Source of the DNA: Ignavibacteriales bacterium
GTDB taxonomy: Bacteria; Bacteroidota; Ignavibacteria; Ignavibacteriales; Melioribacteraceae
Direction: 5' to 3'
DNA: 32,000 nucleotides
Assembly: GCA_021740915.1 (NCBI GenBank)
Contig: JAIOYW010000024.1
Coordinates: 17,705-49,704, forward strand
The position numbers and the translations under genes were made by a program. Positions 3,188 to 32,000 of this stretch are shown here, in pieces; positions within the stretch are counted from its first letter, which is position 1; the number at the start of each line of letters is the position of its first letter. The notes under the pieces are model-generated. The model was not told the DNA's origin. It ran no database searches and saw only the letters and a list, made by a program, of their open reading frames with translations.

Positions 3188-3203
3188 TGTGCGGAGTAAA
3201 TTA

Positions 3204-3551: not shown

Positions 3552-3559
3552 GTGCGGTT

Positions 3560-3994: not shown

Positions 3995-3996
3995 CG

Positions 3997-14878: not shown

Positions 14879-15649
14879 ATGTGCCTGATAGTTTTTGCAA
14901 TTAATACCCATAAGCATTATAAACTTATTGTTGCCGCCAACCGCGATGAGTTTTTTGAAAGACCTGCAGAACCTGTGCATCTGTGGAATCATTCCACTAC
15001 GCTCTATGCCGGAAAAGACCTTAAAGCAGGGGGAACCTGGATGGGGATCAACGAGCAGGGCAGGTTTGCCGCTATTACAAATTACCGTGACGGAAGGGAA
15101 TTCGGGAAAAAATATCCCGTTTCGAGGGGCAGGATCGTTACCGATTTTTTTACATATAATGGAACGCCGAATGCTTACTTAGGAGAGATTGATGCAGGCA
15201 AGGATAAGTATGCAGGGTTCAATCTGCTTGCGGGGGATGCCGGTAAAATTTTCTATTACTCGAACAGAGGCGGCGGAAAGTCGATGCTGGATAAAGGTGT
15301 GTTCGGATTGAGCAACGCTTTTCTTAATACTCCCTGGTTCAAGGTATCGAAAACGATTGCTTCATTTAAAAAGCTTTTGAAGAGTGAAGAGTTTGAGCCT
15401 GCCGCAGTGTTCGATATCCTCGCGGAAACGAGCAAAGCCCCTCCGGAAGAACTTCCCGATACACATATTCCCGCTGAACTTGAGTATAAACTCTCTTCTC
15501 CATTTATCAATTTTGAGGGATACGGCACACGATCGGGCACAGTGCTTACTGTTGACCAGTCGGACAGGGTCATTATAATTGAGAAGACTTACGGGCAGGA
15601 CGGTGCAGAGCAATTTGAAACAAAGGCGGAATTTACGATTATGAGTTAG
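14879..15649 (+). CDS. NRDE-family protein (DUF833 / TANGO2-like)
   Basis: N-terminus is MCLIVFA...KLIVAANRDEFFERP, the family-defining NRDE motif with Cys2. ATG at 14879 starts 1 nt after the upstream TAG, and the 14822 start would overlap the upstream gene. Confidence 0.8.
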   Translation: MCLIVFAINTHKHYKLIVAANRDEFFERPAEPVHLWNHSTTLYAGKDLKAGGTWMGINEQGRFAAITNYRDGREFGKKYPVSRGRIVTDFFTYNGTPNAYLGEIDAGKDKYAGFNLLAGDAGKIFYYSNRGGGKSMLDKGVFGLSNAFLNTPWFKVSKTIASFKKLLKSEEFEPAAVFDILAETSKAPPEELPDTHIPAELEYKLSSPFINFEGYGTRSGTVLTVDQSDRVIIIEKTYGQDGAEQFETKAEFTIMS

Positions 15650-15720
15650 AAAGTTCATCAAGTTAGAAAGTTGCAAGTTGCAAGGCAGAAAATAGAATTT
15701 AGAAGGCAGAAGTTAGAAGT
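15645..15720. repeat. left boundary repeat (GTTAGAAAGTT-type), direct repeat of 28781-28871
   Basis: 15645-15679 is identical over 35 nt to 28781-28815 (GTTAGAAAGTTCATCAAGTTAGAAAGTTGCAAGTT). The next ~40 nt are related (AGGCAGAA..TAGAATTTAGAAG..GCAGAAGTT). The repeat starts 2 nt before the NRDE TAG stop. Confidence 0.85.
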
Positions 15721-15896
15721 AAAAAAATAAGTAACTTGTCTGCGGCAGGCAGGTTTCGAAGCACTGGTTTGTGATGCAATACGATGAAGTTTAGGCGGGG
15801 CAGAATTTTCTTTTGCAAGTTTTGGTCTTGATCGGCAGCTCGTGTGGGGCGGGAAAAGCTATGGTGCTTGAAGATGAGCTTATGACTGGGAACTGG

Positions 15897-18800
15897 CTAA
15901 TATCGTCCATAAATGCTCATTCCTCCTCCAAAATATTGATGTTTCAAATGTTCATAAACCAAATTTGTCCTTAAATCAATATCATCTGTCTGATAAGTTG
16001 GATAAGGCAAAACTTCAAAAAGCGTTTTGTTTACATAGTTAAAAACTGCTGCTGCTGTTACTGATTTATCAGCCCATTGGTCAACTCTTAATTTTTCTTT
16101 TTTCAATTCTTCCAATAGCTCAATCGAAATTTTCTTTATCTCGTTCTTTTCTTTTTCTTCAAGTTTCTTGCCTTGTCTAAGAATATCGAAAATTGCTTTT
16201 TGCTCATCAGTCAATCCTTCTCGTTTGGTGTCGGCTTCTTCTTCAGAATACGAGTTTACAAGTTCAATCAGTTTTCTGAAAGTCTCTTTTATTACAACTT
16301 CGTCCTTTCCTCTATTGTATTCTTCAATGATTTCCTGATAGCGTTTATAATAATCAACTGTCAAAGGATTTCGTTCAACCATTAGTTTTAATTGCTTTTC
16401 AATCTTGTCTTTGAGCGACTGAACAACAGTATTTTTATTCTTTGTTTTCAAAAAGTACTGCTCTAATAATTCAAAATTCAATCCGCTCAGGTCAATGATT
16501 TTCTCCTCGTTGTGGCTTGGTTCGGCAACCATATTTTCTATAGATTCATCAACAACGGCTTGGATTTTTTTCATTATATCTGCAACATCTGCACTTTCTA
16601 CATTGTCCTCAATTGCAGAGTAGATTACATCAATTGCATTTTTTCTTGAAGCATATTGATTTAATACTTTGTCAGGTTGCAGGGCTTTGTATTTCTTGAA
16701 AACCTCTCTTGCCAAAATCTGAAATTTTCGTTTGGTTTCATCATTGGTGTAAACTGCATTTACTGCTTTTTCCATTGCAGCTAATTTGTGTAAGCCTTCT
16801 GCTTTGATTAATTCCTGCAAATCAAAATTTACTTCGTCTTGTAAAAAAGTTTCAGTTGCCTCTAATGCTTCTTCTAATTGCTTGATTAGTTCTTCCTTCG
16901 GTTTTACAGGTGGCTCGGGTTTTTCGTCTCCACCGTTTCCACCTTCATCACCGCCAGAACCGTAAATAGCCAAAGCATCTAATAAAGCAGTATAAGTTTC
17001 AATATAATCTACAATCAAACCATTGTTTTTTCCTTCACTTATTCGGTTGGCTCTTGCAATGGCTTGCATTAAAGTATGTGATTTTAAAGGCTTGTCTAAA
17101 TACAAAGTTGATAGAGTTGGCACGTCAAAACCTGTAATCCACATTGCACAAACAATTACAAAACGGAATGGGTCGTCCTCGTCTTTAAACCTAGTTTCAA
17201 GGTCTTGGGTGTTCATTTTCTCCCTATGCGGTTCAATATCCAGATCCCATTTCTGAAACTTCTGTATTTCGTTTTGCTCCGGACTTACAACAACACAGAT
17301 TTCGGTCTCCTTAATCCATTTCAAATCCCGGCTTTTCTCCAGTAATTCCTGGTCACCATATTTCCCTCTGGAAACTACTTTTTCTAACTGCTCAACATAC
17401 TTTTTCCAATGTTTAGTGATAAGATCATACATTCTTACGGCTGTGAGTTTATCCAATGCGATAAACATTCCTTTGCCTTTATAGCCGCGTTTGCAGAAAT
17501 GCCATACGACATCTTTTGCAATAGCATCCAATCTTTTAAAGGCTGTCAGAATAGGATATTCTCGGTCAAAAAGCTGCTCAACTCTGCTGTACTGGTCACT
17601 GTCCAAATCTTCGCTTTCAGCATCAATTACGGCGCGTATCTGATCATTGATAACCGGATTTTTCAATCCCAGGTACTCGCCCCGGTTTTCGTAATAAAGC
17701 GGAACGGTTGCACCATCATCAACACTTCGTTTGAAATCGTATCGGGAAACATAATCACCAAAAATCCGCTTGGTAATTTCATCATCTTTGAAAAGTGGTG
17801 TTCCAGTAAAGCCAATAAATGAAGCGTTTGGCAAGGCATTACGCAAATTCATTGCTAAATTTCCGCCTTGTGTTCGGTGTGCTTCATCTGAAATGACAAT
17901 GATATTATCCCGTTTTGTTATTTCTTCTTCAAAGTTGAATTTGTGAATGAGTGTAAACAAATATCGGTGTTCCGAACTCAATAATTCTTTCAAATGCTTT
18001 CCACTGTTAGCTTTCAATGAATCTTTTGAACCAGATTTTACTTGCGGAACTGCACCAATTCCGCTAAATGTGCCGTAAATCTGTGTGTCTAATTCGTTTC
18101 GGTCGGTAACAATCAGAAAAGTATAACTACCTGTAAATTTGTGATGGATTTTTTGGCAGAAGAAAACCATTGAATATGATTTACCACTTCCTTGCGTATG
18201 CCAAAACACCCCAAGTTTTTGTTTTTCCTCTAAACTGATTTTGCCCAGTTTGTAGAGTTGTTCTTTATGCTGTATGTTTTCAATGGCTTTGTTTACTCCT
18301 ATAAACTGATGGTTTCGGGCAATAAGTTTTACAACTTTGCCCAATGAATTATCAAACAGAATGAAGTTTTCAAATAAATCTAAAAAGCGTTTTTTCTCGC
18401 AAACTCCTACAATTATTCTATCTAAAGCTACAATGCCTTCGTCTTCTTCGGTGATGCGTTTCCATTCGTGAAAGTGCTGATATTTGCCAGTAACGCTTCC
18501 AATGCGGCTTTCTATTCCGTTACTCAACATTACAAAAGCATTGTAATAAAAGAGTTTTGGTATTACATCTTTGTAATTGGTGAAATTATCGTTGTAGGCG
18601 TTTTCTAATTTACGATGCGCTGCTTTCAGTTCAATGAATAATAGAGGAATGCCATTTACAAAACCAATAATATCGGGTCTGCGTTCCCGGTTGCTTTTGC
18701 CCTGAATCCACAGTTGGCGAACAGCCAGAAAGTTGTTGTTGTCGGCATTGTCAAAATCAAAAACCTTTAGCGTTTTGTTCTTAACCTGTTCGCCTTTCTC

Positions 18801-19127
18801 GTTGATAAAGTCAACAGGAATACCGTTTCTTAATAATTGGTGTTTTTCAAAATTTATTTCAGCTAATGACTTGGTAATGCTTTCTTCAATCAGTTTTTCG
18901 TAGGCTTGGTTGTATGCTGGTTCCGGTAAATTGGGATTGAACTGTTTCAATTTTTCAAAGAAAATCTTTTTGATGACAACTTCCTTTTTGTTTAACCTAC
19001 CCAAAGTGCTGCCTTCGCCAAAACTTTCTTTGTTGTAGGCTAATAGCGTATCCCAACCCAACTGATTGAAAAATAAATCAATCGCTGTTTGTTCTATTAA
19101 ATTATCTTCTGAATATTCCCAAGTCAT
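15897..19127 (-). CDS. hsdR: Type I restriction enzyme R subunit (HsdR)
   Basis: N-terminus MTWEYSEDNLIEQTAIDLFFNQLGWDT. Nuclease motif RPDIIGFVNGIPLLFIELK. Walker A WHTQGSGKS and DEAH box VISDEAHRTQ. 1076 aa. Confidence 0.93.
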   Translation of the reverse strand: MTWEYSEDNLIEQTAIDLFFNQLGWDTLLAYNKESFGEGSTLGRLNKKEVVIKKIFFEKLKQFNPNLPEPAYNQAYEKLIEESITKSLAEINFEKHQLLRNGIPVDFINEKGEQVKNKTLKVFDFDNADNNNFLAVRQLWIQGKSNRERRPDIIGFVNGIPLLFIELKAAHRKLENAYNDNFTNYKDVIPKLFYYNAFVMLSNGIESRIGSVTGKYQHFHEWKRITEEDEGIVALDRIIVGVCEKKRFLDLFENFILFDNSLGKVVKLIARNHQFIGVNKAIENIQHKEQLYKLGKISLEEKQKLGVFWHTQGSGKSYSMVFFCQKIHHKFTGSYTFLIVTDRNELDTQIYGTFSGIGAVPQVKSGSKDSLKANSGKHLKELLSSEHRYLFTLIHKFNFEEEITKRDNIIVISDEAHRTQGGNLAMNLRNALPNASFIGFTGTPLFKDDEITKRIFGDYVSRYDFKRSVDDGATVPLYYENRGEYLGLKNPVINDQIRAVIDAESEDLDSDQYSRVEQLFDREYPILTAFKRLDAIAKDVVWHFCKRGYKGKGMFIALDKLTAVRMYDLITKHWKKYVEQLEKVVSRGKYGDQELLEKSRDLKWIKETEICVVVSPEQNEIQKFQKWDLDIEPHREKMNTQDLETRFKDEDDPFRFVIVCAMWITGFDVPTLSTLYLDKPLKSHTLMQAIARANRISEGKNNGLIVDYIETYTALLDALAIYGSGGDEGGNGGDEKPEPPVKPKEELIKQLEEALEATETFLQDEVNFDLQELIKAEGLHKLAAMEKAVNAVYTNDETKRKFQILAREVFKKYKALQPDKVLNQYASRKNAIDVIYSAIEDNVESADVADIMKKIQAVVDESIENMVAEPSHNEEKIIDLSGLNFELLEQYFLKTKNKNTVVQSLKDKIEKQLKLMVERNPLTVDYYKRYQEIIEEYNRGKDEVVIKETFRKLIELVNSYSEEEADTKREGLTDEQKAIFDILRQGKKLEEKEKNEIKKISIELLEELKKEKLRVDQWADKSVTAAAVFNYVNKTLFEVLPYPTYQTDDIDLRTNLVYEHLKHQYFGGGMSIYGRY

Positions 19128-19129
19128 AG

Positions 19130-20530
19130 TTAATTCCTATTTATTACCAATGCAATCCTATTTACAAATGCATCTTCTTTTTTAATTAATTCTTTCATTG
19201 ATTGGCTTTCAGAAACAAAAATTCCATCAACAATAAAATTGATTTCATTCTCATCATTTCCGTAAATTGATTTTGAATATGCCTTTTCTGTATTGATTTC
19301 TTTTGATAGAGGATAAATCAAACCGCTTGCAATTAAATTGTTTCTGTAATATCCAGAATAGGAATGAATTTGATGTAAATCATCTCTGTCCACATCTCCA
19401 TTTTGCATTTCCATCTTTTTGAATTTGGCATCAAACACAACCACTTTTCCACTTGTTCTGTGCTTCATTACCAAATCAGGAAACATAGGACGGTTAAAGA
19501 ATTGCTGTTGATAAATGCGTAATTCTACCTGGCCACTAACAGACCATTCCGGGAAGTTTTTGCTCAACAATTTTTCAAGATATAATTCATACAATTCTGC
19601 AATGTCAAACAAGTAGCCTGTAGTTGCCAATTGCTGTTTGTCATTATCGGGCATCAGGTCTTTATCCAATAAAATGATTTCAGCATACTCCAAAACCTTC
19701 TTAAACCCGCTGTACATTGGATTATTTATGGATTGATGAGCTTTTGCTTTCTGTATGGTTGCGTAACTTGCATATTGACCTGAATAATTTTGTTTTAGTA
19801 ATTGGTTTAATCCAAGTAACCGACTGTGTATTTCTTTACCAAAAATCCTTTCTAATTTACGCAATGCAAGGTAAAGCAAATCCACAATTTCCTGTACATA
19901 CGTTCGCTCTCTGAACGTACTGGTTAGTTTTCCCTGAAAAGGAATATCCCGTTTCAGGTAATCGTTAAAATCAATACTACCCCTAACTTTGTGGTTTCTT
20001 TCCTGATGCTTTTTGTATTGTTGTGGCAAACCCAACACGGCAGCCTTTTCAAGTGATTGGATAAAAAGATAAGCGATGATAAACAAGAATTGATTTTCAG
20101 TTTCGTCCTTTTTAGCTTTTACCTGTTCGTTATCTACATAAATATCATTCACAAAATTGAGCATTCGTTTCAAAAATGCATCTCCGTATTTTGTGGTGAT
20201 ATTGATTTTACAACCTTTGTAAAACAAAACACCGGCATACAATCCAGTTTGAACGATGTATTCTTTCTCCTGTTCGAGTTTTTCTTTAGAATACAATTTC
20301 AGAATTAAGCGTTCTTCATCTGGTTCAAAAAATCGCCTGCGTTTGAAGTTAAATATTCTGATTTGTTTTAACTGCTCTGCCCCAAGTTTCAATTCATAAA
20401 CCGATGAGAACATTTGTTGCAAATGCTTTTTGTCGCCTGCCTTTTTTACAGCAAAAGCTTCGCCCAAAGCCGATTCACGGATGGGTGCTTCTTCGTAATA
20501 ATTATGATTGACAGGTACGCTTATTCTCAT
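19130..20530 (-). CDS. mcrC: McrC/LlaJI-family restriction endonuclease subunit
   Basis: Lies immediately downstream (1-nt gap) of the McrB-like GTPase. C-terminal PD-(D/E)xK-like core is PDLVMKH...GKVVVFDAKFKK...DLHQIHSY. Confidence 0.7.
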   Translation of the reverse strand: MRISVPVNHNYYEEAPIRESALGEAFAVKKAGDKKHLQQMFSSVYELKLGAEQLKQIRIFNFKRRRFFEPDEERLILKLYSKEKLEQEKEYIVQTGLYAGVLFYKGCKINITTKYGDAFLKRMLNFVNDIYVDNEQVKAKKDETENQFLFIIAYLFIQSLEKAAVLGLPQQYKKHQERNHKVRGSIDFNDYLKRDIPFQGKLTSTFRERTYVQEIVDLLYLALRKLERIFGKEIHSRLLGLNQLLKQNYSGQYASYATIQKAKAHQSINNPMYSGFKKVLEYAEIILLDKDLMPDNDKQQLATTGYLFDIAELYELYLEKLLSKNFPEWSVSGQVELRIYQQQFFNRPMFPDLVMKHRTSGKVVVFDAKFKKMEMQNGDVDRDDLHQIHSYSGYYRNNLIASGLIYPLSKEINTEKAYSKSIYGNDENEINFIVDGIFVSESQSMKELIKKEDAFVNRIALVINRN

Positions 20531-20531
20531 T

Positions 20532-22178
20532 TTATTTCAATGTTTCTTTAAATCGGTTCAATGCCTCATCTAATTTTCCATCAAGCTCACTTTCTGCAAA
20601 AACGGCTCTTAAATATTCTTTCAAAGTTGGGCGTAAATACAAATTGAATAATGTTTCAAGATTATGTTGTGTGATTTCTTTGCGTTTGGCTATATCGCTC
20701 ATCTTCATAAAAAAGGAATGACCAAATTCGTATGATTTACCTAAGCCCAATTCAGCAGAAATATAGTTATTCAGTTTTTCGCAAGCTTTTAGATATTGAT
20801 TAATGTTGCTAAAATCTTCTTTCCTTTTAAATCGTGTTTCTTCTTCTATCACATCATAGTCGCAGTCTTTACGTATCCATTTAAACCTTCTGCGAAGTGC
20901 CAAATCAAAAGCATCAATACTCTTATCTACATCATTCATCATGCCTATGAAAAATACGTTTTCAGGCACACCAAATTTTACTTCACCCTTGTCAATAGTG
21001 TAAGCAAGGGCTTCATAATCTTTATCTTCTTTGATTAAATCTTCAATCAATGTAGCATATTGTGTCCGTATCAGGTTTTTGGAGTCTTTGCTATTGTGGC
21101 GATAATCTTTTTCTAAAAGCGAAAGGGTTTCGCCAAATACTGATGAAAGGTTGGCACGGTTTATTTCATCCACAACAAAATAGTAGGACTTATCGGGGTT
21201 GTTTTTTGCTCTTATGCAGAAGTTCTTGAAAACTCCGTTTACCAACTCAAAGCGAATGTTGCCATCTTTTGAAACACCTTTTGGCTTGATGCCTTCAATA
21301 AAATCTTCGTAAGTAAACGAAGGATGAAATTGCAATAATTCATATCGGGTACTATCACCCTGACAAACAAATTCAAGACTGTTTACTACTGACCAGGTTT
21401 TGCCAGTGCCCGGAGACCCATACATAATTACATTTGGGTTATCGGCATCGGCAATGGTTTTTGCATTCACATACCGCCACAAGAAACCAGAAAGTAAAAT
21501 TAGTTCGCCTATGTCTTTCTCGTTAACTTCCAATATCTCTTTGGCACGTGAACAAACAGCATGATTTTTTGTGAAAATACCTTCAACTTCTCCATCAACA
21601 AAATCGTTATACAATTCATCGAGCCATTGGGTTGAGTAGATATAAACAAATTCGGACAAATTGTCTAATACTGCCATTTTCATCAAAATCTGTTTTGCGC
21701 TGTAGTCCGCTTTTTCCACCATTTCGATTTTTGCCAATGGGTCGGTTTCCGATACTATGCTTTTTAATAAGCCTTTTATGTTGTCGTTGAAGTAAGTTTC
21801 CGCTTCTGCTTTAGAAGCATTTTGTTTGTTTTGTTTAAGGATATAATAAGTAGCACCGTCGTTATTCAACTTCACTTCAAAATTAAATGCAGTACCAGGT
21901 TTTGAAGAACCCAAAACCGTTCGGGTAGTTCGTTCCAGAAAATTACACAAGTAACCACCGGGCATTGCAGCCGTGGCACTACCCAATATGTTGGTGTAAT
22001 CATCTAAACTCAATGTATCTTTCGTAATTTTATCTCTGTACTTTTTCCAATCTTCAAGCAGTTTATCAATTTCAGCCTTATTGAAGTCTTTATCTTCCTG
22101 TTTTGTTTCCCTTCTGAATTTTTCCCAAAGGGCTTTGATTTGTTCTTGCCTTTCTTCGGTAATTTTTTTTCTCTCCAT
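20532..22178 (-). CDS. mcrB: McrB-like AAA+ GTPase subunit with an uncharacterised ~240-aa N-terminal domain
   Basis: Walker A GSPGTGKTW and Walker B FVVDEINRANLSSVFGE. McrB signature FFIGMMNDVDKSIDAFDLALRRRF (MNxxDxS type). Confidence 0.85.
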   Translation of the reverse strand: MERKKITEERQEQIKALWEKFRRETKQEDKDFNKAEIDKLLEDWKKYRDKITKDTLSLDDYTNILGSATAAMPGGYLCNFLERTTRTVLGSSKPGTAFNFEVKLNNDGATYYILKQNKQNASKAEAETYFNDNIKGLLKSIVSETDPLAKIEMVEKADYSAKQILMKMAVLDNLSEFVYIYSTQWLDELYNDFVDGEVEGIFTKNHAVCSRAKEILEVNEKDIGELILLSGFLWRYVNAKTIADADNPNVIMYGSPGTGKTWSVVNSLEFVCQGDSTRYELLQFHPSFTYEDFIEGIKPKGVSKDGNIRFELVNGVFKNFCIRAKNNPDKSYYFVVDEINRANLSSVFGETLSLLEKDYRHNSKDSKNLIRTQYATLIEDLIKEDKDYEALAYTIDKGEVKFGVPENVFFIGMMNDVDKSIDAFDLALRRRFKWIRKDCDYDVIEEETRFKRKEDFSNINQYLKACEKLNNYISAELGLGKSYEFGHSFFMKMSDIAKRKEITQHNLETLFNLYLRPTLKEYLRAVFAESELDGKLDEALNRFKETLK

Positions 22179-22219
22179 AAGTTCATCCGTTCTTTAATGA
22201 TTGATGGCAATAATTATTC

Positions 22220-22624
22220 CTATAAATTCTTTTTGGGTTTAAATTTGCCATTGAGAAGCCTTTTGAACTCTAAGCTTTTGGCTCCAAAATTTATAAGCAG
22301 ACCTACTTCCAAATCATACGCTTCTAAATAATTTATGGCTTGTGCAAAATGTACATCTTCTAATTTTATAATTGCTTTCAACTCAACAGATACTACTCCT
22401 TCTACCAAAAAATCAACCCTGCGGGTGCCAATCTGCTGGTTTTTGTAATAAACAGGCATTTCATGTTCTCTTGAAAATGCTATGCCATTATCAGTCATTT
22501 CAATTTCCAAAGCTCTTTGATAAATGACTTCCTGAAAGCCATTTCCCAATGACCTATGAACAGCCATAGCACAACCAATTATTTTGGATGTCAGTTCTGA
22601 ATATTTATATTCTTCTTTAATCAT
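22220..22624 (-). CDS. GxxExxY-family protein (PD-(D/E)xK superfamily)
   Basis: Motif LGNGFQEVIYQRALEIEM, then RVDFLVEGVVSVELKA. ATG at 22624 (MIKEEYKY) is preferred over TTG at 22651. Confidence 0.8.
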   Translation of the reverse strand: MIKEEYKYSELTSKIIGCAMAVHRSLGNGFQEVIYQRALEIEMTDNGIAFSREHEMPVYYKNQQIGTRRVDFLVEGVVSVELKAIIKLEDVHFAQAINYLEAYDLEVGLLINFGAKSLEFKRLLNGKFKPKKNL

Positions 22625-22657
22625 AAGTAATTCATTTATACCGGTAATCAATTAATG

Positions 22658-22814
22658 AGTTAAATATTGTCTGAACTTTGATTCTTTTGATTTCAGGATT
22701 ACCCTGATTTTTTCCTCGTCTTTAATCATATTTAATCAATAATCAGTTAAACATTGTCTGCAATATGATTCTATTGATTTCAAGATTACCCTGATTTATC
22801 TTTGTCTTTAATCA
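22658..22814. repeat. two tandem ~70-bp direct repeats (22658-22728 and 22745-22814, period 87 bp) in a TAATCA-rich spacer
   Basis: Aligned by eye at roughly 85% identity. Shared core is AGTTAAAyATTGTCTG...GATTC.TTTGATTTCArGATTACCCTGATTT...GTCTTTAATCA. Confidence 0.85.
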
Positions 22815-22845
22815 AACTTAATCAGTTAATCAGTTTAATCACAGT

Positions 22846-23898
22846 TCAGACTTCTATTTGTCCGTTCATCAGTTTAGGTAATAAAATATCCCGTGCCTCA
22901 CGGAGTTTAGCGTTTTGCTTAATTAAGTTAAGTATCAAGTTATACATTTGCTGTGCTTCTGCTTCAAATTCTTGCTGAATTTTATCACTTGGTGTTTTCA
23001 ACTTAACTTTCATCAATTCAACTTTCGTTACAGCGTTAAATATTGCACCGTTACCAATAACATCCTCAGCAAAAAAGAACTCTTTCAATTGATGATAGAA
23101 ATAATTCTGAAAGCCCTTTTTGCTCCTAAAAGCACATAAACCACGACCAATGCAGATTTTATCACTTGTGAAATTTATTCTTCCAACTGGTGCTCTTACT
23201 GAAAATAAAATGTCACCATCTTCGGCAATTTTAGTTGGTGTTTTACAATAGATTTTGTGTTCTACAAAGTAGTTTGAAAAATTGGTTACACCTTGATGAA
23301 AGGGCAAATTGTCTTCCTTTTCATTCGTATATGTATCAGAAGTTGGACTTTGCCCCATTACAACATTTGCCAATTCGTCAATAGTAAATTCTTCTAGTTT
23401 TTCATTTTGAACAATCAACTTATAACTTGCAAACGCCTTCTCCTCCAGCAACTTTATCCGCTTCAAATTATTCTCTATCAAATCATCATAAGCCGATAAA
23501 ATGGAAGCGATGCGGCGTTGGGTGGGGAATTCAGGAATATTAAATTTTATTGGTTTTAATACAGTTTGGGTTAATAGTGGTTGGGCTGAACCGCCAGCGT
23601 AACTATTTAGAGGATAATTTTTAAGCAAGTAGTAAACAAAAACTAAATCTGCGTTTGATTTTGGTTTTGCTACAATCGTGTTATCAGAAGGCCAGAAGTT
23701 ATTTAATGAAACTTCAACCGAACCACAATTTGCTCCAACTCTTCCAATAATTATTCCTTTATCATAAAGATAATTTTCGGAATAGCCAATAATTCCATTT
23801 GAACCAAATGCAGGAAAATTTCCCTTTTCAGAAGGCAATATTGATTTTCCATTATAGAAATCAACGAATTGTTCTAATGGTAAATGACTCCACTTCAT
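22846..23898 (-). CDS. hsdS: Type I restriction-modification specificity subunit (HsdS)
   Basis: Two TRD-like halves separated by a helical spacer (IASILSAYDDLIENNLKRIKLLEEKA). C-terminal conserved helix is LREARDILLPKLMNGQIEV. ATGA overlap with the upstream gene. Confidence 0.85.
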   Translation of the reverse strand: MKWSHLPLEQFVDFYNGKSILPSEKGNFPAFGSNGIIGYSENYLYDKGIIIGRVGANCGSVEVSLNNFWPSDNTIVAKPKSNADLVFVYYLLKNYPLNSYAGGSAQPLLTQTVLKPIKFNIPEFPTQRRIASILSAYDDLIENNLKRIKLLEEKAFASYKLIVQNEKLEEFTIDELANVVMGQSPTSDTYTNEKEDNLPFHQGVTNFSNYFVEHKIYCKTPTKIAEDGDILFSVRAPVGRINFTSDKICIGRGLCAFRSKKGFQNYFYHQLKEFFFAEDVIGNGAIFNAVTKVELMKVKLKTPSDKIQQEFEAEAQQMYNLILNLIKQNAKLREARDILLPKLMNGQIEV

Positions 23899-24755
23899 AT
23901 CGCCTCCTCTTTTAATTGTTTCACTATCTGCACGGTCAGGCTATCCATACGTGAAAAGGCAAACCATTTTTTGCCCAAATCTTTCAGAGATGCCCCAATA
24001 TGGTAGAGTTCTGTGCCGTCGATAATCATGAAGCGGTCGTGGCTTTGTGCAAAGGTTTTTACGGCTATGGGCGGGTATTGGGCATTGTGTTTTTGTAAGT
24101 CAAGTTGTAATGCTTTGCCGATTTCTTTGGTGTATAATCTGGCCTTTACTTCAGGTTTCCGTTTGCTCAGTAGCATAAGTACGCTGTCGTCCACAAAGTT
24201 GTCTATCAGAATGATTTCAGTATTGGCTTTCCTAATGATATCCGCCACAAAAGCGTAGGCATCAAAAATTTGCCCATCGAAGAAAATGCCTTGCATGGGC
24301 AGTTCCTGCGTTTGTAGTTGTAAGGAGATTTTGCTCACTTCTTTTTGTAGATTTTCAACATTATTTTCAATTCTATCCATGCGTTGATTCATGGCATAAC
24401 CCTTTAGCAAATAATCTCTTAAAACATTGGTAGCCCAAATACGAAATTGTGTGCCTTGTTTTGATTTTACGCGATATCCAACTGAAATAATTACATCGAG
24501 GTTGTAATATTCGATACTTCTTTCAACTGTTCTGCCTCCTTCGTTTTGAACTGTCGCAAAATTTGCGACAGTTGAATTTTTCGGTAGTTCCCCCTCGGCA
24601 AAAACATTGTTGATGTGCTTTCCAATGGTTTTAACATCTCTGCCAAATAGCAATGCTATTTGATTTCGATTTAACCATACAGTATTCTCATCGAGCCTGA
24701 CTTCAATATGCTCGGGTAGTGCATCTGACTGATATAGAATAATTTCGTTTTTCAT
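23895..24755 (-). CDS. rhuM: RhuM-family protein (N-terminal RhuM/DNA-binding region plus C-terminal PLD-like domain)
   Basis: N-terminal part reads IEVRLDENTVWLNRNQIALLFGRDVKTIGKHI and YYNLDVIISVGYRVKSKQGTQFRIWATNVLRDYLLKGY. C-terminal part reads IILIDNFVDDSVL...SHDRFMIIDGTELYHIGASLKDLGKKWFAFS. ATG at 24755 lies 4 nt after the hsdM stop. Confidence 0.8.
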   Translation of the reverse strand: MKNEIILYQSDALPEHIEVRLDENTVWLNRNQIALLFGRDVKTIGKHINNVFAEGELPKNSTVANFATVQNEGGRTVERSIEYYNLDVIISVGYRVKSKQGTQFRIWATNVLRDYLLKGYAMNQRMDRIENNVENLQKEVSKISLQLQTQELPMQGIFFDGQIFDAYAFVADIIRKANTEIILIDNFVDDSVLMLLSKRKPEVKARLYTKEIGKALQLDLQKHNAQYPPIAVKTFAQSHDRFMIIDGTELYHIGASLKDLGKKWFAFSRMDSLTVQIVKQLKEEAI

Positions 24756-24759
24756 AAAT

Positions 24760-26829
24760 CTACAATGCCAGATTTTTATAATTCTCACTAATTAATTTAG
24801 CCAACACATTCGCTTCTTCGTTCAATCCTTCCAACTCAATGTGTATTTCGTTCAGGCGTTCTTCGTAGTCAAAGTCCTCATCGGTGACGGTGTCAACTCC
24901 TACGTATCTGCCCGGGCTAAGACTCCAATCTTTGGTTTCAATTTCTTTTTGCGTTACAACTTTACATAGTCCTTCCACATCTTTATAAACGCCTTCGGGA
25001 AAACGGCTTGTAAGCCAATGAGCCTGTTTATAGAAATATTCTGTTTCGTGCAATAAACCCAATTCGTCTTCATCGGGGTTGCCACTAAGTTGCTGTTGCA
25101 GGGCTTTGAGTTGGTCAAGCTGTTCTCTCAGATTCAGCGCTTTCCATGCAGGGTTTTTGCCCAATAGGTATTCTTTGGCGGCAGTGCCTATGGCATCGAG
25201 CAACTGCTTGATGAGTTTGTCTTGTGGTTTGCGGAGTGCTTTTGTCTGAACTGTGATTTCTGTGATTAACTGATTGCCGTGATTTTTCTTTACGGTATCA
25301 ATCAGTTCGGTTTGTTTGTTTAACACATCCTGATATTCTTCGATGTTCAGAGCATCAACAAAGGCTTTTGCTTCTTCGTTTTCTTTAGCGTATTTAGTTG
25401 CAAAATCACTAACAGTTTTCAATACCTTTTGTAATTGCTTTTGCAGTTCGGTGGTTGCCTCGGCTGTTTCTTTTGCTAAGTCGGCAGAAGTTTGTAAATA
25501 ATCTTTTACCGTACTTTCAAACTTTTGAATATTGCCTCTGTACAGGTTTACAATGCAAATGAGGTTTTGCAACTGCTCGGGGCTAAAATCGTTTACCTTA
25601 CTGGTTACTTTGCGGTAAATTTTTCGGGCATCGAGCATCAATACTTGGTCTTTTCTTTCAATATCTTGTTCTTTTGCTCTGTCGAAAAACCACAACGTAC
25701 AAGGCAAAGAACGAGTATAGAAAAAGTTGTTGCCAATTGCCATCATCACATCTACTGCACCCGTTTTTACCAATTTTTCCCGAATGTCCTTTTCGCTATG
25801 CCCAGCATCGCTGGCAGATGAAGCCATTACAAAACCTGCTCTGCCTGTTGGTTTTAGGTAATTATAGAAATATTGAATCCACAAATAATTGGCGTTGTCG
25901 TTTTTCGGCAGGTTTACTTTGCCGTCTATCATCAAACGAGGGTCTTTTTTTACAGCATCTTTGGCTTTGTCCACACCATCCACATTAAACGGTGGGTTTG
26001 CCATCACAAAGTCAGCACCTCCCACAAGGTTGTGTTTGTCTTCGTAAAATGTGTTTCCTTCCTGAATATTGCCTTCCAGTCCGTGAACTGTTAAGTTCAT
26101 CTTAGCCAGTTTGGTATTGAGGTCGGCTTTTTCCTGTCCGTAAAAAGTTACCTTTTCCGCAGGTTTCAAACCTTCGCTTTCAATGAAATAACCAGTTTGA
26201 ACAAACATACCCGCACTGCCGCAGGCAGGGTCAAACACAATTCCGTGGTCGGGTTCAATTACATTTACAATGGTTTGTACCAGACTCATAGGTGTAAAAA
26301 ACTCTCCACCTTCTTGTGCTCCAGTCATGGCAAATTTGCCAAGGAAATATTCGTAAATCTTACCGAATAAATCACCTTCGGCTTTTTGCAGCACCTCTTT
26401 ATTAAAAATACGGAGCAGTTCACGCAACAGGTCTTTGCTGAAAATGGAGAAATTTTTTGGCAAAACTCCTTTGAGGTTCTCATATTCATCCTCAATCAGT
26501 TTCATTGCATTGTCGATGGCTTCGCCTATATCGGCACTTTCAGGTAAGGCAACCAAATAATGAAACTGCGATTTCTCAGGCAGGAACATCGAATTCTGCT
26601 CTTCAAAATCCTTTTTGGTCAGCGGTCGTTTACCCCTCTGCGGATGTGACGGGAGGTTTTTTTCAACTTCAATTCTAACTTTCTGAAAACGATTGTAAGC
26701 ATGTCTCAAAAAAATCAATCCGAGAACAGGCATCGAATATTCCGATGCAGTCAATTTACTATTTGCTCTTAACTGGTCGGCTGCTCTCCAAAGTTCAGCT
26801 TCTAATTTTCTTAGTTGTTTTCCCTGCAT
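24760..26829 (-). CDS. hsdM: Type I restriction-modification DNA methyltransferase subunit (HsdM), long form with ~200-aa coiled-coil insertion
   Basis: N-terminus LWRAADQLRANSKLTASEYSMPVLGLIFLR. Motif I FDPACGSAGMF and motif IV MANPPFN. C-terminal tail DWSLSPGRYVG. Confidence 0.93.
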   Translation of the reverse strand: MQGKQLRKLEAELWRAADQLRANSKLTASEYSMPVLGLIFLRHAYNRFQKVRIEVEKNLPSHPQRGKRPLTKKDFEEQNSMFLPEKSQFHYLVALPESADIGEAIDNAMKLIEDEYENLKGVLPKNFSIFSKDLLRELLRIFNKEVLQKAEGDLFGKIYEYFLGKFAMTGAQEGGEFFTPMSLVQTIVNVIEPDHGIVFDPACGSAGMFVQTGYFIESEGLKPAEKVTFYGQEKADLNTKLAKMNLTVHGLEGNIQEGNTFYEDKHNLVGGADFVMANPPFNVDGVDKAKDAVKKDPRLMIDGKVNLPKNDNANYLWIQYFYNYLKPTGRAGFVMASSASDAGHSEKDIREKLVKTGAVDVMMAIGNNFFYTRSLPCTLWFFDRAKEQDIERKDQVLMLDARKIYRKVTSKVNDFSPEQLQNLICIVNLYRGNIQKFESTVKDYLQTSADLAKETAEATTELQKQLQKVLKTVSDFATKYAKENEEAKAFVDALNIEEYQDVLNKQTELIDTVKKNHGNQLITEITVQTKALRKPQDKLIKQLLDAIGTAAKEYLLGKNPAWKALNLREQLDQLKALQQQLSGNPDEDELGLLHETEYFYKQAHWLTSRFPEGVYKDVEGLCKVVTQKEIETKDWSLSPGRYVGVDTVTDEDFDYEERLNEIHIELEGLNEEANVLAKLISENYKNLAL

Positions 26830-27140
26830 TATATCTTAATTTCCAATTCGAAAATTCATTTCTCAAAAGTAAACAATTTGCATGGATGCGTAAACATTAT
26901 TCACGCTATTTTGCAAGCTTTGGCTAAAGTGTCAAATCCTGCGGGGTAGGAGAAATTGTTGGCTTGCAAATTTGCGGCAATATCTGTGGGGTTTTCTCCT
27001 TTTTTTGCAGGGGGAGGAAAAAAACAAAATAAATTCCCATCAAATCTGCACTGTCCGCCCGTTTGATTTTAGCCTTTATTATGCCTTTTCCCATTTGCAT
27101 TATTAAATTTTGAATCATCTACGCCATCAAAAGTTAATGA

Positions 27141-27929
27141 CTATGCTACTAATTTTAATTTGCTAATATTTTCCGGTGTATGTCTTTGGCTCCAGAGAAT
27201 ATAGTTTGCTCTTTTATTGTCAAGTGCCGATAAATATTCATCACTAACTTCTCTGTCAATGTCATTAATTACAGCGAGTCCAATAACTTCTTTTTGGGTT
27301 TGCTGCTCTCGCACTTTTTTTATATCGTCCCATGTGAATAAGAAATGTGGCAAATTCATTTTATTTACAGAGTTGAATGATTTGATCACAATTTCAGTAT
27401 TCTTATATGCTATTTGAAAATCAAAAGTAAATTCAAGACCTGTGCTACCCTTAGAAATAAAGTAAGGTGTATAAATAAGTTCCTGTTCGTCTAAATAAGC
27501 TTTTACATCTTCCCTGAAAACAGAAGCTACAGTGTGCCTTGCCAAATAATACATATCGGCTGTCTCAGAAATTGCAGAGATTAAATTAAGCTTTTTCTGC
27601 GGAAAATCTTTCTCGTTTGCTTCAGTGGTCAGTTCTTCATTTTTAATTTGCACACCATAATTGATAAGAATACGGTCAAGTATTTCTTTTCTTTTGGGTG
27701 AACGGGTGATTTCAAGTCCACTTAATTCCAAATCTCTTAGTGTATTTCCATCATCAGAAAGAATAATTATATTGCCTTCTTTTTTTGCGTAGATGTCCAC
27801 TGTATCGTTGAATAATCCGACAAAGGGAGTGCTTATTTCAATCCAATCCGAGGAATTTTTGGCTGTAACTAATGTTTTTTCCTTAAGAAAAGCATAATAA
27901 TCGTCCATTAATGTATGTATCCAATTCAT
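27141..27929 (-). CDS. DUF1828/DUF1829-like protein of unknown function
   Basis: The N-terminal pattern W...YY.FLKEKT...WIEISTPFVGLFNDTVDIYAKKEGNIIILSDDGNTLRDLELSGLEI resembles DUF1828 as I recall it. The family assignment is not verified. Confidence 0.55.
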   Translation of the reverse strand: MNWIHTLMDDYYAFLKEKTLVTAKNSSDWIEISTPFVGLFNDTVDIYAKKEGNIIILSDDGNTLRDLELSGLEITRSPKRKEILDRILINYGVQIKNEELTTEANEKDFPQKKLNLISAISETADMYYLARHTVASVFREDVKAYLDEQELIYTPYFISKGSTGLEFTFDFQIAYKNTEIVIKSFNSVNKMNLPHFLFTWDDIKKVREQQTQKEVIGLAVINDIDREVSDEYLSALDNKRANYILWSQRHTPENISKLKLVA

Positions 27930-28447
27930 AATATTCTCATTTGTTGGTTGAAGGTAGTATCAGTTTTAACGTTGATTTTCTTAAAGAATACGTCTATTGT
28001 TCGGATGTAATCTTCCCTCTCTTTAAGTTCTTTTACCGGAAAGTCATCTATTTCCAAAGGTATCGCCCAAGCTAAAGGCTTGTAACCGTCCACAACATAG
28101 TGTATATGACCAGCGTAACCATCTAACCACTACCCCGCAAAAGGTCTAAAAATTTCTGGTACAGTTGGGGTTATTTCAGTTGGGTTAAAATGCCTACCAT
28201 TAAAATCAACTCTCAACAAACCATTTTGTGTGATATTGTCCAGGTGATGAAGACTTATCTTTAAGATCTTCTTTTCACTTTCTTTAATGTCAAGTAAAAA
28301 ATTTTGGTCTAAGTCGTCAGGAGCTGAAAGTGTCAGCCGAAAACTCATAGGATATAGAATTTCCATGATTAAGGTTCTAGAAATTTCACCATTCTGAACA
28401 ATATATTTGTCCAGTCCTAAAAGATATTCAGCTAATTCTACCGTCAT
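27926..28447 (-). pseudogene. unknown-function gene interrupted by a single in-frame TAG (28130-28132); the two halves form one 174-codon frame
   Basis: The 105-aa ORF ends ...RVDFNGRHFNPTEITPTVPEIFRPFAG-TAG. The same frame continues WLDGYAGHIHYVVDGYKPLAWAIPLEIDDFPV... for 67 more codons. It ends in a TGA that overlaps the ATG of the next gene (ATGA at 27926-27929). Confidence 0.6.
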
Positions 28448-28680
28448 TCTTAATTCTTAAATTTTGTGTTCAAAGATTACATCTTTTTGTTTACTGTTGC
28501 AAAAGCGTTTTTCAGAGTGAGGCACAACATCCTGCTTCACCCAATATAAATAACGCAAAAAAACCGGCAAAAACAAAAAACCGAATTACAGCGTTTTCGG
28601 GATATAATCACTATCTGAACAGGTTTCTTCATTATATCTTAAAATAAGAATAATTTGCAATTTATGCACGGAAAGTTTGG

Positions 28681-28920
28681 GGAGTTGAAAAGTTAGGAAG
28701 TTTGTCAAGTTAGAAAGTTGAAAGTTGGGAAGTGGAAAGTTCATCAAGTTGGAAAGTTAGAAAGTTAGAAAGTTCATCAAGTTAGAAAGTTCATCAAGTT
28801 AGAAAGTTGCAAGTTACAAATTAGAAGGCAGAATTTAGAATTTAGAAGTTAGAAGGCAGAAGTTGGAAAGTTTGAAAGTGGAAAGTTCATCAAGTTAGGA
28901 AGTTTGTCAGGTTGAAAAGT
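28681..28920. repeat. array of ~25 degenerate GTT-phased 8-9-bp units (GTTrGAAA / GTTCATCAA / GTTTGTCAr), C-poor on the plus strand
   Basis: Read directly. Contains the right copy (28781-28871) of the island boundary repeat. Its ends carry nested direct repeats (GTTAGGAAGTTTGTCArGTT near 28691 and 28894). Confidence 0.9.
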
Positions 28921-28975
28921 TCCAGGTTATTAATTCACCATTAACAATTTAGAATTAATAATTAGCAATTAGTAA

Positions 28976-29224
28976 TTAGTAATTGCCTTTAAAGTGTTTC
29001 TCGAATTCTTTTTCGATTTTGAGGTTGATCTCGTTCTTCATTTTTTCGAGGGATTCGTACAATTCTTTACGGTCAATTTTATAGGCGTATTCGGTTTCGA
29101 GAATAGTCACTCTTTTATCTATTGCACCATAGAATAATATTGCTGCGGTTACGACAGAAATCACATAAATAATAAATCTGAGCAATTCCCGCAGCTCGTT
29201 GGTGGAATGTTCATTTTTCAGCAT
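28976..29224 (-). CDS. small single-pass membrane protein with C-terminal coiled coil (phage-associated; holin/spanin-like is only a guess)
   Basis: TM segment LLRFIIYVISVVTAAILFYGAI. GGAG lies 6 nt upstream of the ATG. Confidence 0.45.
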   Translation of the reverse strand: MLKNEHSTNELRELLRFIIYVISVVTAAILFYGAIDKRVTILETEYAYKIDRKELYESLEKMKNEINLKIEKEFEKHFKGNY

Positions 29225-29417
29225 TTGCGCTCCATTTGTATTTCACTTTTACGGCTTTATGAGCCAGCCCGCCTCCGGTGAGCAGCATTCCGAGAAACCG
29301 GCAGACAGACTCTCCTTTCGAACCTTCTGGAAGAAAGCCGGCGATAAGCAGCAGCGAAGAGCCGATGACAGTTTTTTTGCCGCTAAGATATTGCCAGATG
29401 ATATTAAGTTTTTTCAT
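29211..29417 (-). CDS. small membrane protein (phage-associated)
   Basis: Two hydrophobic segments (VIGSSLLLIAGFL and FLGMLLTGGGLA). A strong AAGGAGG site precedes the ATG. Overlaps the next gene by 14 nt. Confidence 0.4.
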   Translation of the reverse strand: MKKLNIIWQYLSGKKTVIGSSLLLIAGFLPEGSKGESVCRFLGMLLTGGGLAHKAVKVKYKWSANAEK

Positions 29418-29476
29418 ATATCCTCCTTATGGAATATCCCGCGGGCACCCTCAACCCGCGGAACATCCACCCTCCT

Positions 29477-29881
29477 TTATCTGCCTTTAAGAACAGACCA
29501 TGTCTGGAATTTGTAAAGAACCTCTTTTGCAATCTGCATTGCAGCCGGGGCATATTCGCCGAGTGCGAATTTATCTCCGCGGGCTACGAGTGATACAATC
29601 TCCTCATCGGTGAGATCACCGGCTTCGGAAGCTGCCTGTGCCGAGCCGCTCAGCGCCGAAGTGAGGCTTATCGCAAATGAACCGAGCAGCGCAAGATCAT
29701 TCAGATTGATTGATCCATCGGCTTTAGCCTTCAGCCATATTTCAATTACCGTGAAATAGAGATCAACAAAATCGCTGAGCTCAGTGACTCCTGAAATATC
29801 AGGCGGAATAACGGCGTTAACCTTATCGAGATTAACAGGTATCAAAGCAGCTCCTCTGAAATTGAGTTCGTTGTTTTTCAT
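29477..29881 (-). CDS. hypothetical phage head-associated protein (134 aa)
   Basis: ATG at 29881 is preceded by GGAGG and directly abuts the capsid stop. The longer 156-aa version would overlap the capsid gene. No family recognised. Confidence 0.5.
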   Translation of the reverse strand: MKNNELNFRGAALIPVNLDKVNAVIPPDISGVTELSDFVDLYFTVIEIWLKAKADGSINLNDLALLGSFAISLTSALSGSAQAASEAGDLTDEEIVSLVARGDKFALGEYAPAAMQIAKEVLYKFQTWSVLKGR

Positions 29882-29891
29882 CCCTGCCTCC

Positions 29892-30827
29892 TTAATCAAT
29901 ACGCCAGCCTCTGCTCCTGTAAAGAGCCGAGGGATTCTGAAGAACAAGCGCCATATCCATATTTACGTTATTCGTAAGGAAATTGCCCGATTGTCCGGCA
30001 TACCTTACTTTCACGCCGACAGATGTGAGAGCCGTGAGATCGGTTCTTTCACCCCAGCGGACAGCATAAATATCGGAGCATCTCTCGACTGAAGTGCCAA
30101 CAGTATCGGTAAACGGAAGCAAAGGAGTGCCATCGGCAGCATAACCTGCGCCGCGGATGATCACATTGCCTATCTTTTCGATCTCGTCGCCGAGTTCATC
30201 TTTGCCGGTCCTGTAATAACCGAGTGCCTTTGCAACAGTAAGCCACCTTATTTTGAGGTATTCGTTCATGTATGCATGAGTGGCACCTCCGGGAATAGTG
30301 GCAAAAAGTTTGAGCAATTCCTCAAGAGCCTGCTGCTGCGATGTCACTTTGGCATCGGTATTTCCCAGAGGAATTACAAGTCCATTCGCTGCGGGTACGA
30401 GAATATTATCTTCCGGGGTCAGGTTTTTTAAGCCATCGAAAACAACCGGTTCCTCCGCGCTGTCACCGTTAAAGATTTTAGCCTGGAGCAGGTATCCTGC
30501 CGATTCAGCTTCAATCCTTGTCTGGTATATCAGTTCAGCTTCCGGATCTTCGTTCCTGTCTTCGAGAAGAACATCCACCTGCACATCGAAAGAGATTATC
30601 TTTTTAGCGGCGGGGATGTATTCAGGAATAGGCGGGACTGCAATGTTCGGATTATTCAGCGTCCTGAATACGGATGTGAGATTGCCTTCGCGCGCCTTTT
30701 TTACTGCATCGGCTGATCCTGCCTTTGCGTAGAAGCTGACATCTTTCAGTATCGGAGCCGTCTTTTCAAGTGCATTAACAACTATTGAAGTAACCGGATC
30801 CTTACTGCTTATTTCTCTTAATAACAT
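29892..30827 (-). CDS. phage major capsid protein (family not resolved)
   Basis: 311 aa, immediately downstream of a Mu gpI-type protease/scaffold gene. GGAGG lies 5 nt upstream of the ATG. Position and size fit a major capsid protein, but I could not match it by eye to Mu gpT or lambda gpE. Confidence 0.65.
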   Translation of the reverse strand: MLLREISSKDPVTSIVVNALEKTAPILKDVSFYAKAGSADAVKKAREGNLTSVFRTLNNPNIAVPPIPEYIPAAKKIISFDVQVDVLLEDRNEDPEAELIYQTRIEAESAGYLLQAKIFNGDSAEEPVVFDGLKNLTPEDNILVPAANGLVIPLGNTDAKVTSQQQALEELLKLFATIPGGATHAYMNEYLKIRWLTVAKALGYYRTGKDELGDEIEKIGNVIIRGAGYAADGTPLLPFTDTVGTSVERCSDIYAVRWGERTDLTALTSVGVKVRYAGQSGNFLTNNVNMDMALVLQNPSALYRSRGWRID

Positions 30828-30838
30828 AAAGCCTCCTT

Positions 30839-31663: not shown

Positions 31664-31785
31664 TTTGCGCCTCCTTTTGTTAATTGATGAAGGCGAAACT
31701 AATTCCGTTCCGCCCTCTAAAAAAGCTTTTCCAATCCAAATACATATATGGAAAAATATCTTCGGATAAGGGTCTGCCTGACGCC

Positions 31786-31995: not shown

Positions 31996-32000
31996 AATTC

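Follow-up and report, generated by a model that had tools for sequence, protein, structure and literature searches.

A variable defence hot spot with a recurring frame of tandem-repeat arrays in an Ignavibacteriales genome

Genes, repeats and composition of the island

The window analysed here is a stretch of 32,000 nt from an Ignavibacteriales bacterium (assembly GCA_021740915.1, contig JAIOYW010000024.1). Its sequence is part of contig JAIPBF010000022.1 (37,329 nt) of the metagenome-assembled genome (MAG) GCA_021739725.1, annotated as Ignavibacteriales bacterium. Between an NRDE/TANGO2-family gene and a remnant of a Mu-like phage, the window holds a 13-kb island of defence genes bracketed by direct repeats (Table 1), and the comparison with sister strains given below shows this locus to be a variable defence hot spot. 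The ten genes between the repeats all lie on the minus strand and are all of defence type according to Pfam and PADLOC; an earlier note made from the bare sequence had proposed this strand and, for almost all of them, this type. They comprise a Type I restriction-modification (R-M) operon with nested McrBC, PDDEXK_3 and RhuM genes, in the order hsdM-rhuM-hsdS-PDDEXK_3-mcrB-mcrC-hsdR, plus the two-gene candidate system PDC-M24. HsdR, HsdM and HsdS are all encoded, so that the predicted Type I set has each of its subunits. The neighbouring genes for an AAA_5 McrB (PF07728) and for McrC (PF10117) matched no McrBC-specific PADLOC model. Coverage by the two databases also has gaps at mcrC itself, which was recognized by Pfam only, at the PDDEXK_3 gene, which has no PADLOC match, and at an 87-aa gene of sister strain C (see below), which has no match in either. 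In the DUF6978 gene, 67 further codons are open beyond the in-frame TAG; read together, they would give a product of ~172 aa, which fits the 166-position PADLOC profile. The TAG could mean that the gene is a pseudogene by nonsense mutation, that this strain is a variant or that the codon is read through.

The repeat is a perfect 35-mer, GTTAGAAAGTTCATCAAGTTAGAAAGTTGCAAGTT, found exactly twice in the window, at 15645-15679 and 28781-28815, both times on the plus strand. These are the places given in the earlier note, and the related sequence that it described behind each copy extends the similarity to 76 nt at 87% identity (15644-15719 versus 28780-28855). Across 100 dinucleotide-preserving shuffles, with up to 3 mismatches tolerated, the 35-mer was matched 0 times. 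A chance or low-complexity origin was rejected on account of these empty shuffles and of the order of the sub-blocks, which is the same in both copies and in the sister strains. Both copies sit within composite short-period tandem arrays, built from units of AGTTAGAAAGTTCATCA (17 nt), GCAAGTT (7 nt), TTAGAAGGCAGAAT(TTAGAAT) (14/21 nt) and ATTAGTA (7 nt). Both run from (AGTTAGAAAGTTCATCA)n by way of (GCAAGTT)n to (TTAGAAGGCAGAAKTTAGAAT)n, and the arrays are directly oriented throughout. On the right side, the arrays are flanked by degenerate AAGTT word blocks and an ATTAGTA-type array; the whole array region spans ~300 nt (28683-28984) and encloses the right copy of the 35-mer. The left copy begins 2 nt ahead of the TAG of the NRDE gene (15647-15649; reading ...ATG AGT TAG), just where it had been placed before. 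The suggestion drawn from this position, that an integrating element regenerates the 3' end of the gene, was not sustained: only 5 nt of the repeat (AGTTA-G) lie in the NRDE open reading frame (ORF), and therefore almost none of the gene is regenerated.

The island is compositionally foreign, both in its GC content of 36.3% and in its tetranucleotide usage. The left flank has 41.9% GC (43-45% in the two adjacent genes) and the phage block 46.6%; the lower GC of the island had thus been read correctly from spot counts, but the figures of 38, 47 and 55% had not, those for the left flank and the phage block being too high. The tetranucleotide correlation with the left host flank is 0.63 for the island and 0.88 for the phage block, which is host-like in this respect. 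Together with the clustering of HsdR with Bacteroidota proteins (below), the value for the island supports the earlier reading of the block as a defence island, and a compositionally foreign one. It is also correct that AGGAGG is present at the phage genes and mostly lacking at the island genes. This contrast is no mark of foreignness, though, because the host genes of the left flank have no Shine-Dalgarno sites either; it separates phage from non-phage genes, not island from host. Among the ORFs between the repeats, Pfam and PADLOC gave no match to integrase, recombinase or transposase families, in keeping with the earlier reading. The island and, up to the contig ends, the phage block likewise gave no family match to an integrase, transposase or relaxase, and the cargo of the window and that of strain B have no mobility gene.

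Table 1. Coordinates of the features at the locus, from left to right in the window
Feature	Position	Strand	Remarks
NRDE/TANGO2-family gene, left anchor	14879..15649	+	Pfam PF05742, E=2.7e-67; start 14879
Left repeat array	15644..15719	+	17-mer x2, GCAAGTT x2, GGCAGAA units; 35-mer inside; overlaps NRDE stop
Tail-L, junction array / cargo 3' end	15705..15775	+	Kept beside unrelated cargo
hsdR	15897..19127	-	Pfam HSDR_N, SWI2_SNF2, T1RH-like_C; PADLOC REase_I 2.7e-167
mcrC-like gene	19130..20530	-	Pfam McrBC PF10117, 9.5e-34
mcrB-like AAA_5 GTPase gene	20532..22178	-	Pfam AAA_5 (PF07728) 1.3e-16; weak McrB_lid match on record
PDDEXK_3 (GxxExxY-type) small nuclease-fold gene	22220..22651	-	Pfam PF13366, 1.2e-38
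hsdS	22846..23898	-	Pfam Methylase_S, two domains; PADLOC Specificity_I
RhuM-family gene, nested in hsd operon	23895..24788	-	PADLOC candidate PDC-S05
hsdM	24760..26829	-	Pfam N6_Mtase, HsdM_N; PADLOC MTase_I 1.2e-239
DUF1828/DUF1829 protein gene	27141..27929	-	PADLOC candidate PDC-M24B
DUF6978 gene	27930..28447	-	PADLOC candidate PDC-M24A; in-frame TAG after codon 105
Head (~150 nt), upstream of first cargo gene	28546..28690	-	Sigma-70-like promoter
Right repeat array	28683..28920	+	Word block, 17-mers, GCAAGTT, GGCAGAA units, second word block; 35-mer 28781-28815
Tail-R	28906..29017	+	ATTAGTA-type array 28940-28984 and last ~40 nt of 82-aa phage gene
Right anchor, truncated Mu-like head-module remnant	28976..32000	-	82-, 68- and 156-aa genes; 311-aa major capsid; Mu-like_Pro protease/scaffold; 69-aa zinc ribbon

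Cargo replacement between near-identical flanks

The exact 256-aa NRDE product is on record in NCBI Ignavibacteriales MAGs. Its gene has a single cluster of close relatives, at 98% identity, the remaining homologues reaching at most 51%. In strains sequenced by the Joint Genome Institute (JGI), the 98%-identical allele flanks different cargo. The anchors of contigs Ga0172375_10005010 and Ga0172367_10003005 are 98.3-98.5% identical to the window on the NRDE side and 97.0% identical on the side of the phage block. The first of these contigs (19,323 nt), reconstructed in full, represents what we call strain B (left flank 98.5%, phage block 97.0%), and strain C is represented by contigs L014, L029, L026 and L034. 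In strain B, the order is NRDE, array, RhuM gene, Head with array and Tail-L, main cargo, Head with array and Tail-R, phage block (Head, Tail-L and Tail-R being the short conserved segments listed in Table 1). Its main cargo encodes a 1,436-aa Type IIG enzyme, a KilA-N protein (PDC-S22), a 1,111-aa protein with HKD and Snf2 domains and a methyl-directed restriction endonuclease. Strain C shares the Snf2 and KilA-N genes with strain B and has a 91%-identical variant of the Type IIG enzyme, a second RhuM paralogue and the 87-aa gene. RhuM genes other than the one nested in the hsd operon of the window make up a separate cassette in strain B and stand where the main cargo begins in strain C; both strains have three arrays and one additional RhuM cassette.

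Three cargo states are therefore found on a near-identical background, and the site is polymorphic by replacement, with different defence cargo between anchors that are 97-98% identical. This bears out the expectation that the repeats mark the boundaries of a variable segment and that relatives would differ in gene content here. The form of the variation is another matter: the earlier note had looked to an empty site, with the NRDE gene followed by a single repeat, and the relatives carry replacement cargo between the same anchors instead. No empty site occurs among the contigs found, which sample one population, and none of them joins NRDE to an intact phage block. In strains B and C, the NRDE-array-Tail-R junction takes in no more than ~40 nt of the 82-aa gene, after which other cargo begins. 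The earlier view of the island as a possible fossil is a misfit, because the cargo has turned over between strains with flanks 97-98% identical. Short-k-mer assemblies break exactly inside the 35-mer, and NRDE contigs from other samples end within the array or show replacement cargo. Such breaks are not evidence of excision, because a repeat longer than the k-mer yields the same breaks.

As to where the cargo came from, clustering at 90% identity places HsdR in a group of 600 proteins that spans phyla and includes Agriterribacter humi, Saprospiraceae and other Bacteroidota. In nucleotide sequence, the Saprospiraceae and Agriterribacter genes match hsdR at 84-85% and hsdM at 80-82% identity, and the homology stops at the gene ends. 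The Bacteroidota hsd loci lie in unrelated chromosomal contexts and have no McrBC, arrays, Head or Tail. By sequence comparison, then, part of the cargo was evidently gained horizontally from Bacteroidota-like donors. We rejected the possibility that Bacteroidota possess the entire 13-kb island as one unit, since they have in common with it only hsdR, hsdM and parts of hsdS, PDDEXK_3 and RhuM. We also rejected its presence on a known plasmid or phage: no plasmid matched, and the phage match was trivial (225 nt). With homology limited to genes, and with McrBC and the frame absent from those Bacteroidota loci, the island is therefore best described as a mosaic of a shared Type I core, nested McrBC and small genes, and a local frame. 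Among homologous Bacteroidota hsd operons, the position of the PDDEXK_3 gene varies, which suggests an independently inserted small gene. Upstream of it in the window, within 22645-22851, lies an 87-nt tandem repeat (2.2 copies, 22645-22835) in which TAATCAGT words are abundant, and a 32-nt inverted partner of this repeat (88%) is found inside hsdM, at 25228-25285.

The frame of arrays, Head and Tails and its occurrence elsewhere

The arrays, Tail-L and Head are kept at every cassette boundary, and this is an unusual feature of the locus. Head is 100% identical in strain C and 96% identical before the different main cargo of strain B, and a copy of ~85% identity precedes the RhuM cassette. It holds a predicted promoter directed into the cargo (TTGCAA-18-TATAAT, 28660-28631), a good sigma-70-like match, and this promoter region is the conserved core of the segment. 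Head has no conserved RNA fold (consensus fold energy -1.1 kcal/mol). A structured or small RNA was considered for Head and found unsupported, given this energy, conservation of the promoter-like part alone and the lack of any Rfam match across the window. Tail-L (~70 nt) is retained at 97% identity over 67 nt beside the unrelated cargo of strain B (L006 4220-4286), and its first 49 nt are retained in strain C. Directly behind NRDE, strains B and C have copies of Tail-R (92% identical), which make up a 'solo' junction (L006 2737-2841). In strain B, the first array has 6.7 copies of the 17-mer after the NRDE stop and leads into a Tail-R that includes ~40 nt of the 82-aa gene. The window itself reads NRDE-array-Tail-L-cargo-Head-array-Tail-R, which is the layout expected if an NRDE-array-Tail-R sequence and a Head-array-Tail-L molecule had recombined within the array.

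The copy number of the 17-mer at this locus ranges from 2 to 7 between strains, the left array position having 6.7-7 copies in strains B and C, and reaches ~12 at a second locus, gdhA. Single-strand folding of the arrays was no better than that of shuffled sequence (z -0.6 to -1.0). The arrays, Tail-L and Head gave no match resembling a terminator; attC-like or terminator-like folding of these elements is thus unsupported. Direct repeats do bracket the island, yet they vary in copy number and also occur inside the islands of the sister strains and at another locus. With similar words also present in unrelated taxa, they therefore hardly constitute a unique att core.

The second locus lies at the end of contig JAIPBF010000006.1 (L046 5500-11657), in the same MAG as the window sequence (GCA_021739725.1). 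Here, an array of a variant 17-mer (AGTTGGAAAGTTTATCA x6) with an ATTA-type tail comes after gdhA; behind it lie a TerS-TerL-Portal_Mu-gp36-like series of phage genes, a further tandem array of a different family (CGACTCCGCTCAGTAACCG-type), a diverged Head-like segment and, last, the cargo. The cargo consists in the MAG of genes for a 519-aa protein with a weak nSTAND3 match and a 246-aa protein, and in a JGI strain (L013/L020) of a type 1 bacteriophage exclusion (BREX) system. Judged by their sequence, related arrays and a Head-like segment thus frame a second variable locus, which again lies downstream of a phage operon. In the PglX-like ORF of the BREX system, at L013 10804-14043, we noticed by eye an apparent inserted segment whose motifs look typical of IS200/RAYT-type Y1 transposases (…HVHVLLQP…).

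Beyond this lineage, Paludibacter, Vicingus, Berkelbacteria and metagenome contigs of low GC have a 24-mer of the array as well, usually directly after stop codons or as forward and reverse word blocks between convergent genes. The 24-mer was found 0 times in 2.9 million viral contigs, where it was the only element searched. The possibility raised earlier, that the repeat belongs to a dispersed intergenic family, is thus borne out to the extent that a variant lies at a second locus and similar words occur in unrelated taxa. In an organism of ~29% GC, AAGTT blocks in forward and reverse orientation lie between convergent genes (L016 ~313, L025 ~5730, L027 ~4132, L018 ~2562). Some of these alleles have a GC-rich perfect palindrome (CCTACCACC…GGTGGTAGG) at the centre of the block and others do not, a pattern that resembles a miniature mobile element.

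The phage block to the right of the island continues past the window end with DUF3164, S24 repressor and 177-aa genes. As far as the contigs reach, genes for a transposase, an integrase, a terminase, a portal and tail proteins are missing from this ~5-kb block. In IMG/VR phages with capsids 50-64% identical, TerS-TerL-portal-gp36 genes run divergently from protease-capsid genes, and tail genes follow; in one of them (L042), the homologue of the 82-aa gene lies mid-operon. Since genes present in these relatives are missing here, the block is a truncated remnant, and without mobility genes it is an unlikely helper in trans. The tandem-integrated phage-like element that had been put forward for this role is accordingly a poor candidate. 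An integrase or a third repeat copy, which the earlier note advised looking for to the right, is absent up to the contig ends, 75-585 nt past the 177-aa gene; this last stretch has a dispersed palindromic repeat and no array. The palindromic repeat, TCTCGCAGACCTGCCCCGCACTGCGGGGGACGCAGAG, stands at the contig ends (L046 11420-11530; L029 480-540) and probably causes the assembly breaks. The closest viral relative by capsid, L038 (IMGVR_UViG_3300014656_006070), has 7-nt-period arrays between its genes, at 40-104, 483-533, 4046-4097 and 5478-5519, and such word arrays may be characteristic of phages of this lineage.

Further features lie in the left flank, outside the variable region. A Y1_Tnp gene (IS200/RAYT-like) is located ~6 kb to the left, at 8954-9547 on the minus strand, and three tandem paralogous genes for GAF-SpoIIE/PP2C phosphatases, with conserved DNA blocks in common, occupy 1127-8225 on the plus strand. 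The gene at 9737-11263 (minus strand) encodes a DUF4062/HATPase_c_4/Fic-like_C protein with a weak match to PADLOC models associated with prokaryotic Argonaute (pAgo). Within it, at 9967-10056, a 12-nt tandem repeat of 7.5 copies encodes (ATEQ)n, and the annotation of strains B and C divides the gene into two ORFs (244 and 262 aa).

Routes of cargo exchange and comparison with known systems

In kind, a locus of this sort is a known phenomenon; the frame of arrays, Head and Tails, which recurs at a second locus, is the unusual part. The variable defence hot spot shown by the strain comparison is similar to the immigration control region (ICR) of Escherichia coli, and we consider it probable that strains trade cargo by recombining through the conserved frame, a route that we infer. 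The NRDE/TANGO2 gene and the decayed Mu-like head remnant serve as conserved anchors around a slot for minus-strand defence operons. Incoming DNA would be exchanged by homologous or unequal recombination of the host, by way of the anchors, Head, Tail-L and the arrays of 100-300 nt, and no site-specific recombinase encoded by the island would be involved. The arrays would provide directly repeated homology through which cassettes could be added, dropped or swapped, and would themselves grow and shrink by slippage.

Several observations weigh against exchange of this kind. Neither a recombination event nor a circle nor a true empty site was seen among the contigs, and the sampling covers one species-level population. 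Tail-L stops at the same point (…CACTGGTTTG) in strain B as in the window, and the cargoes of the window and of strains B and C all meet Head near AAAAACCGG. Common end points could indicate a discrete, site-specific boundary in place of diffuse homologous exchange. Moreover, strain B has a duplicated segment of array, Tail-R and 40 nt of the phage gene, which integration of a circle of the Campbell type explains more easily than allelic replacement does. These features lead to another reading, in which an integrase-less cassette is mobilized in trans by a recombinase encoded elsewhere, with Head-array-Tail-L as attP, NRDE-stop-array-Tail-R as attB, and cassettes stacking as in integrons. The window has exactly the attL/attR architecture of a Campbell integration within the array, strain B has two cassettes split by a third array, and its NRDE-array-Tail-R junction resembles an unoccupied attB for ~320 nt. 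The direct orientation of all arrays, the retention of Head and Tail-L beside unrelated cargo with shared end points, and the duplication in strain B would follow as well. We nevertheless think this reading unlikely, with no recombinase in the island, in the window or in the ~2.3 kb past its right end, and with a 'core' that is a length-variable array without hairpin potential, unlike known att or attC sites. A truly empty site and a circular junction are also lacking among the contigs, the island has no plasmid match, and the 24-mer, as the sole element searched, is missing from the viral contigs.

The phage remnant itself might account for the locus if this were a 'moron' hot spot of a decaying Mu-like prophage, with arrays inherited as phage intergenic features and past phage-borne exchange as in P2/P4. 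Both loci read, on one strand, from the end of a phage operon through a tandem array and Head into cargo. They hold complementary halves of a Mu-like head module (TerS-TerL-portal-gp36 at gdhA, protease-capsid here) that are adjacent in related phages, and the intergenic arrays of L038 fit the same idea. Prophage-encoded defence hot spots are known and give this reading a precedent (PMC9122126). Yet a host gene forms the left anchor, the viral contigs lack the array 24-mer, and the ~5-kb remnant is host-like in composition while cargo has turned over among strains that share it at 97%; we regard a prophage hot spot as improbable. Still less probable, in our estimate, is that the arrays are purely regulatory or insulating, as a binding-site array, a variable-copy tract at the Head promoter or a spacer between convergent genes, and that their position at the borders is coincidental. 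Their place directly upstream of a conserved promoter-like site, the copy-number differences between strains and the occurrence of the same words between convergent genes and right after stop codons in other taxa would suit such a role. The left array, however, has no adjoining Head or promoter, no terminator-like or stable structure was found, and the presence of an array at every cassette boundary is left unexplained. A regulatory function of the arrays is, in any case, compatible with a hot spot whose cargo is exchanged by host recombination.

One may go further and suppose that the arrays and Head form a dedicated, reusable docking site, at which recombination within the arrays, by RecA or by an unlinked recombinase, would allow defence operons to be taken up, stacked and exchanged: an integron-like arrangement without an integrase, present at at least two hot spots, beside the two halves of a Mu-like head module, and perhaps descended from phage intergenic arrays. 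We offer this as a speculation that is rather doubtful. Most known defence hot spots are from Proteobacteria, and this locus is a natural case of one without an integrase, from an uncultured branch of the Fibrobacteres-Chlorobi-Bacteroidetes (FCB) group. The same frame at each boundary, combined with three cargo states, makes repeat-driven exchange testable with read-level data. If the arrays proved incidental, the locus would be one more ICR-like island, still recording cross-phylum transfer of a Type I R-M core.

Among known systems, the ICR of E. coli is a hot spot with no mobilizing gene at its anchors, and its content is replaced among relatives (PMC12707154). The ICR (hot spot 36; hsdRMS-mcrBC-mrr between yjiA and yjiN) and the present locus have in common a cassette-like combination of Type I R-M and McrBC between conserved anchors, the lack of a mobilizing gene, and replacement instead of presence or absence. 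They differ in phylum, in the prophage remnant that forms one anchor here, in the nesting of McrBC within the hsd operon, and in the frame of arrays, promoter-bearing Head and Tail-L that this locus has at each boundary. To our knowledge, no such frame has been described for the ICR. Hot spots of P2/P4-type prophages and satellites resemble the locus in the diverse defence genes that alternate at a fixed position, co-oriented with conserved phage genes (PMC9122126). In our case, however, the phage part is a truncated head remnant of ~5 kb without integrase, transposase, terminase, portal or tail genes, and the other border is a host gene. Islands that carry an integrase and insert at the 3' end of a gene or tRNA are likewise low-GC foreign blocks between direct repeats, one of which touches the end of a gene. 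In contrast to these, the present island has no integrase and no empty site among the contigs found, its repeats are variable arrays that overlap the gene by 5 nt, and a third array lies inside the islands of the sister strains. Although IntI, attI and attC hairpins are lacking here, and each cassette is an operon of several genes, up to 13 kb long and preceded by a promoter-like Head, the locus shares with integron cassette arrays its co-oriented, stacked cassettes, the repeated site between them and a cassette number that varies between strains.

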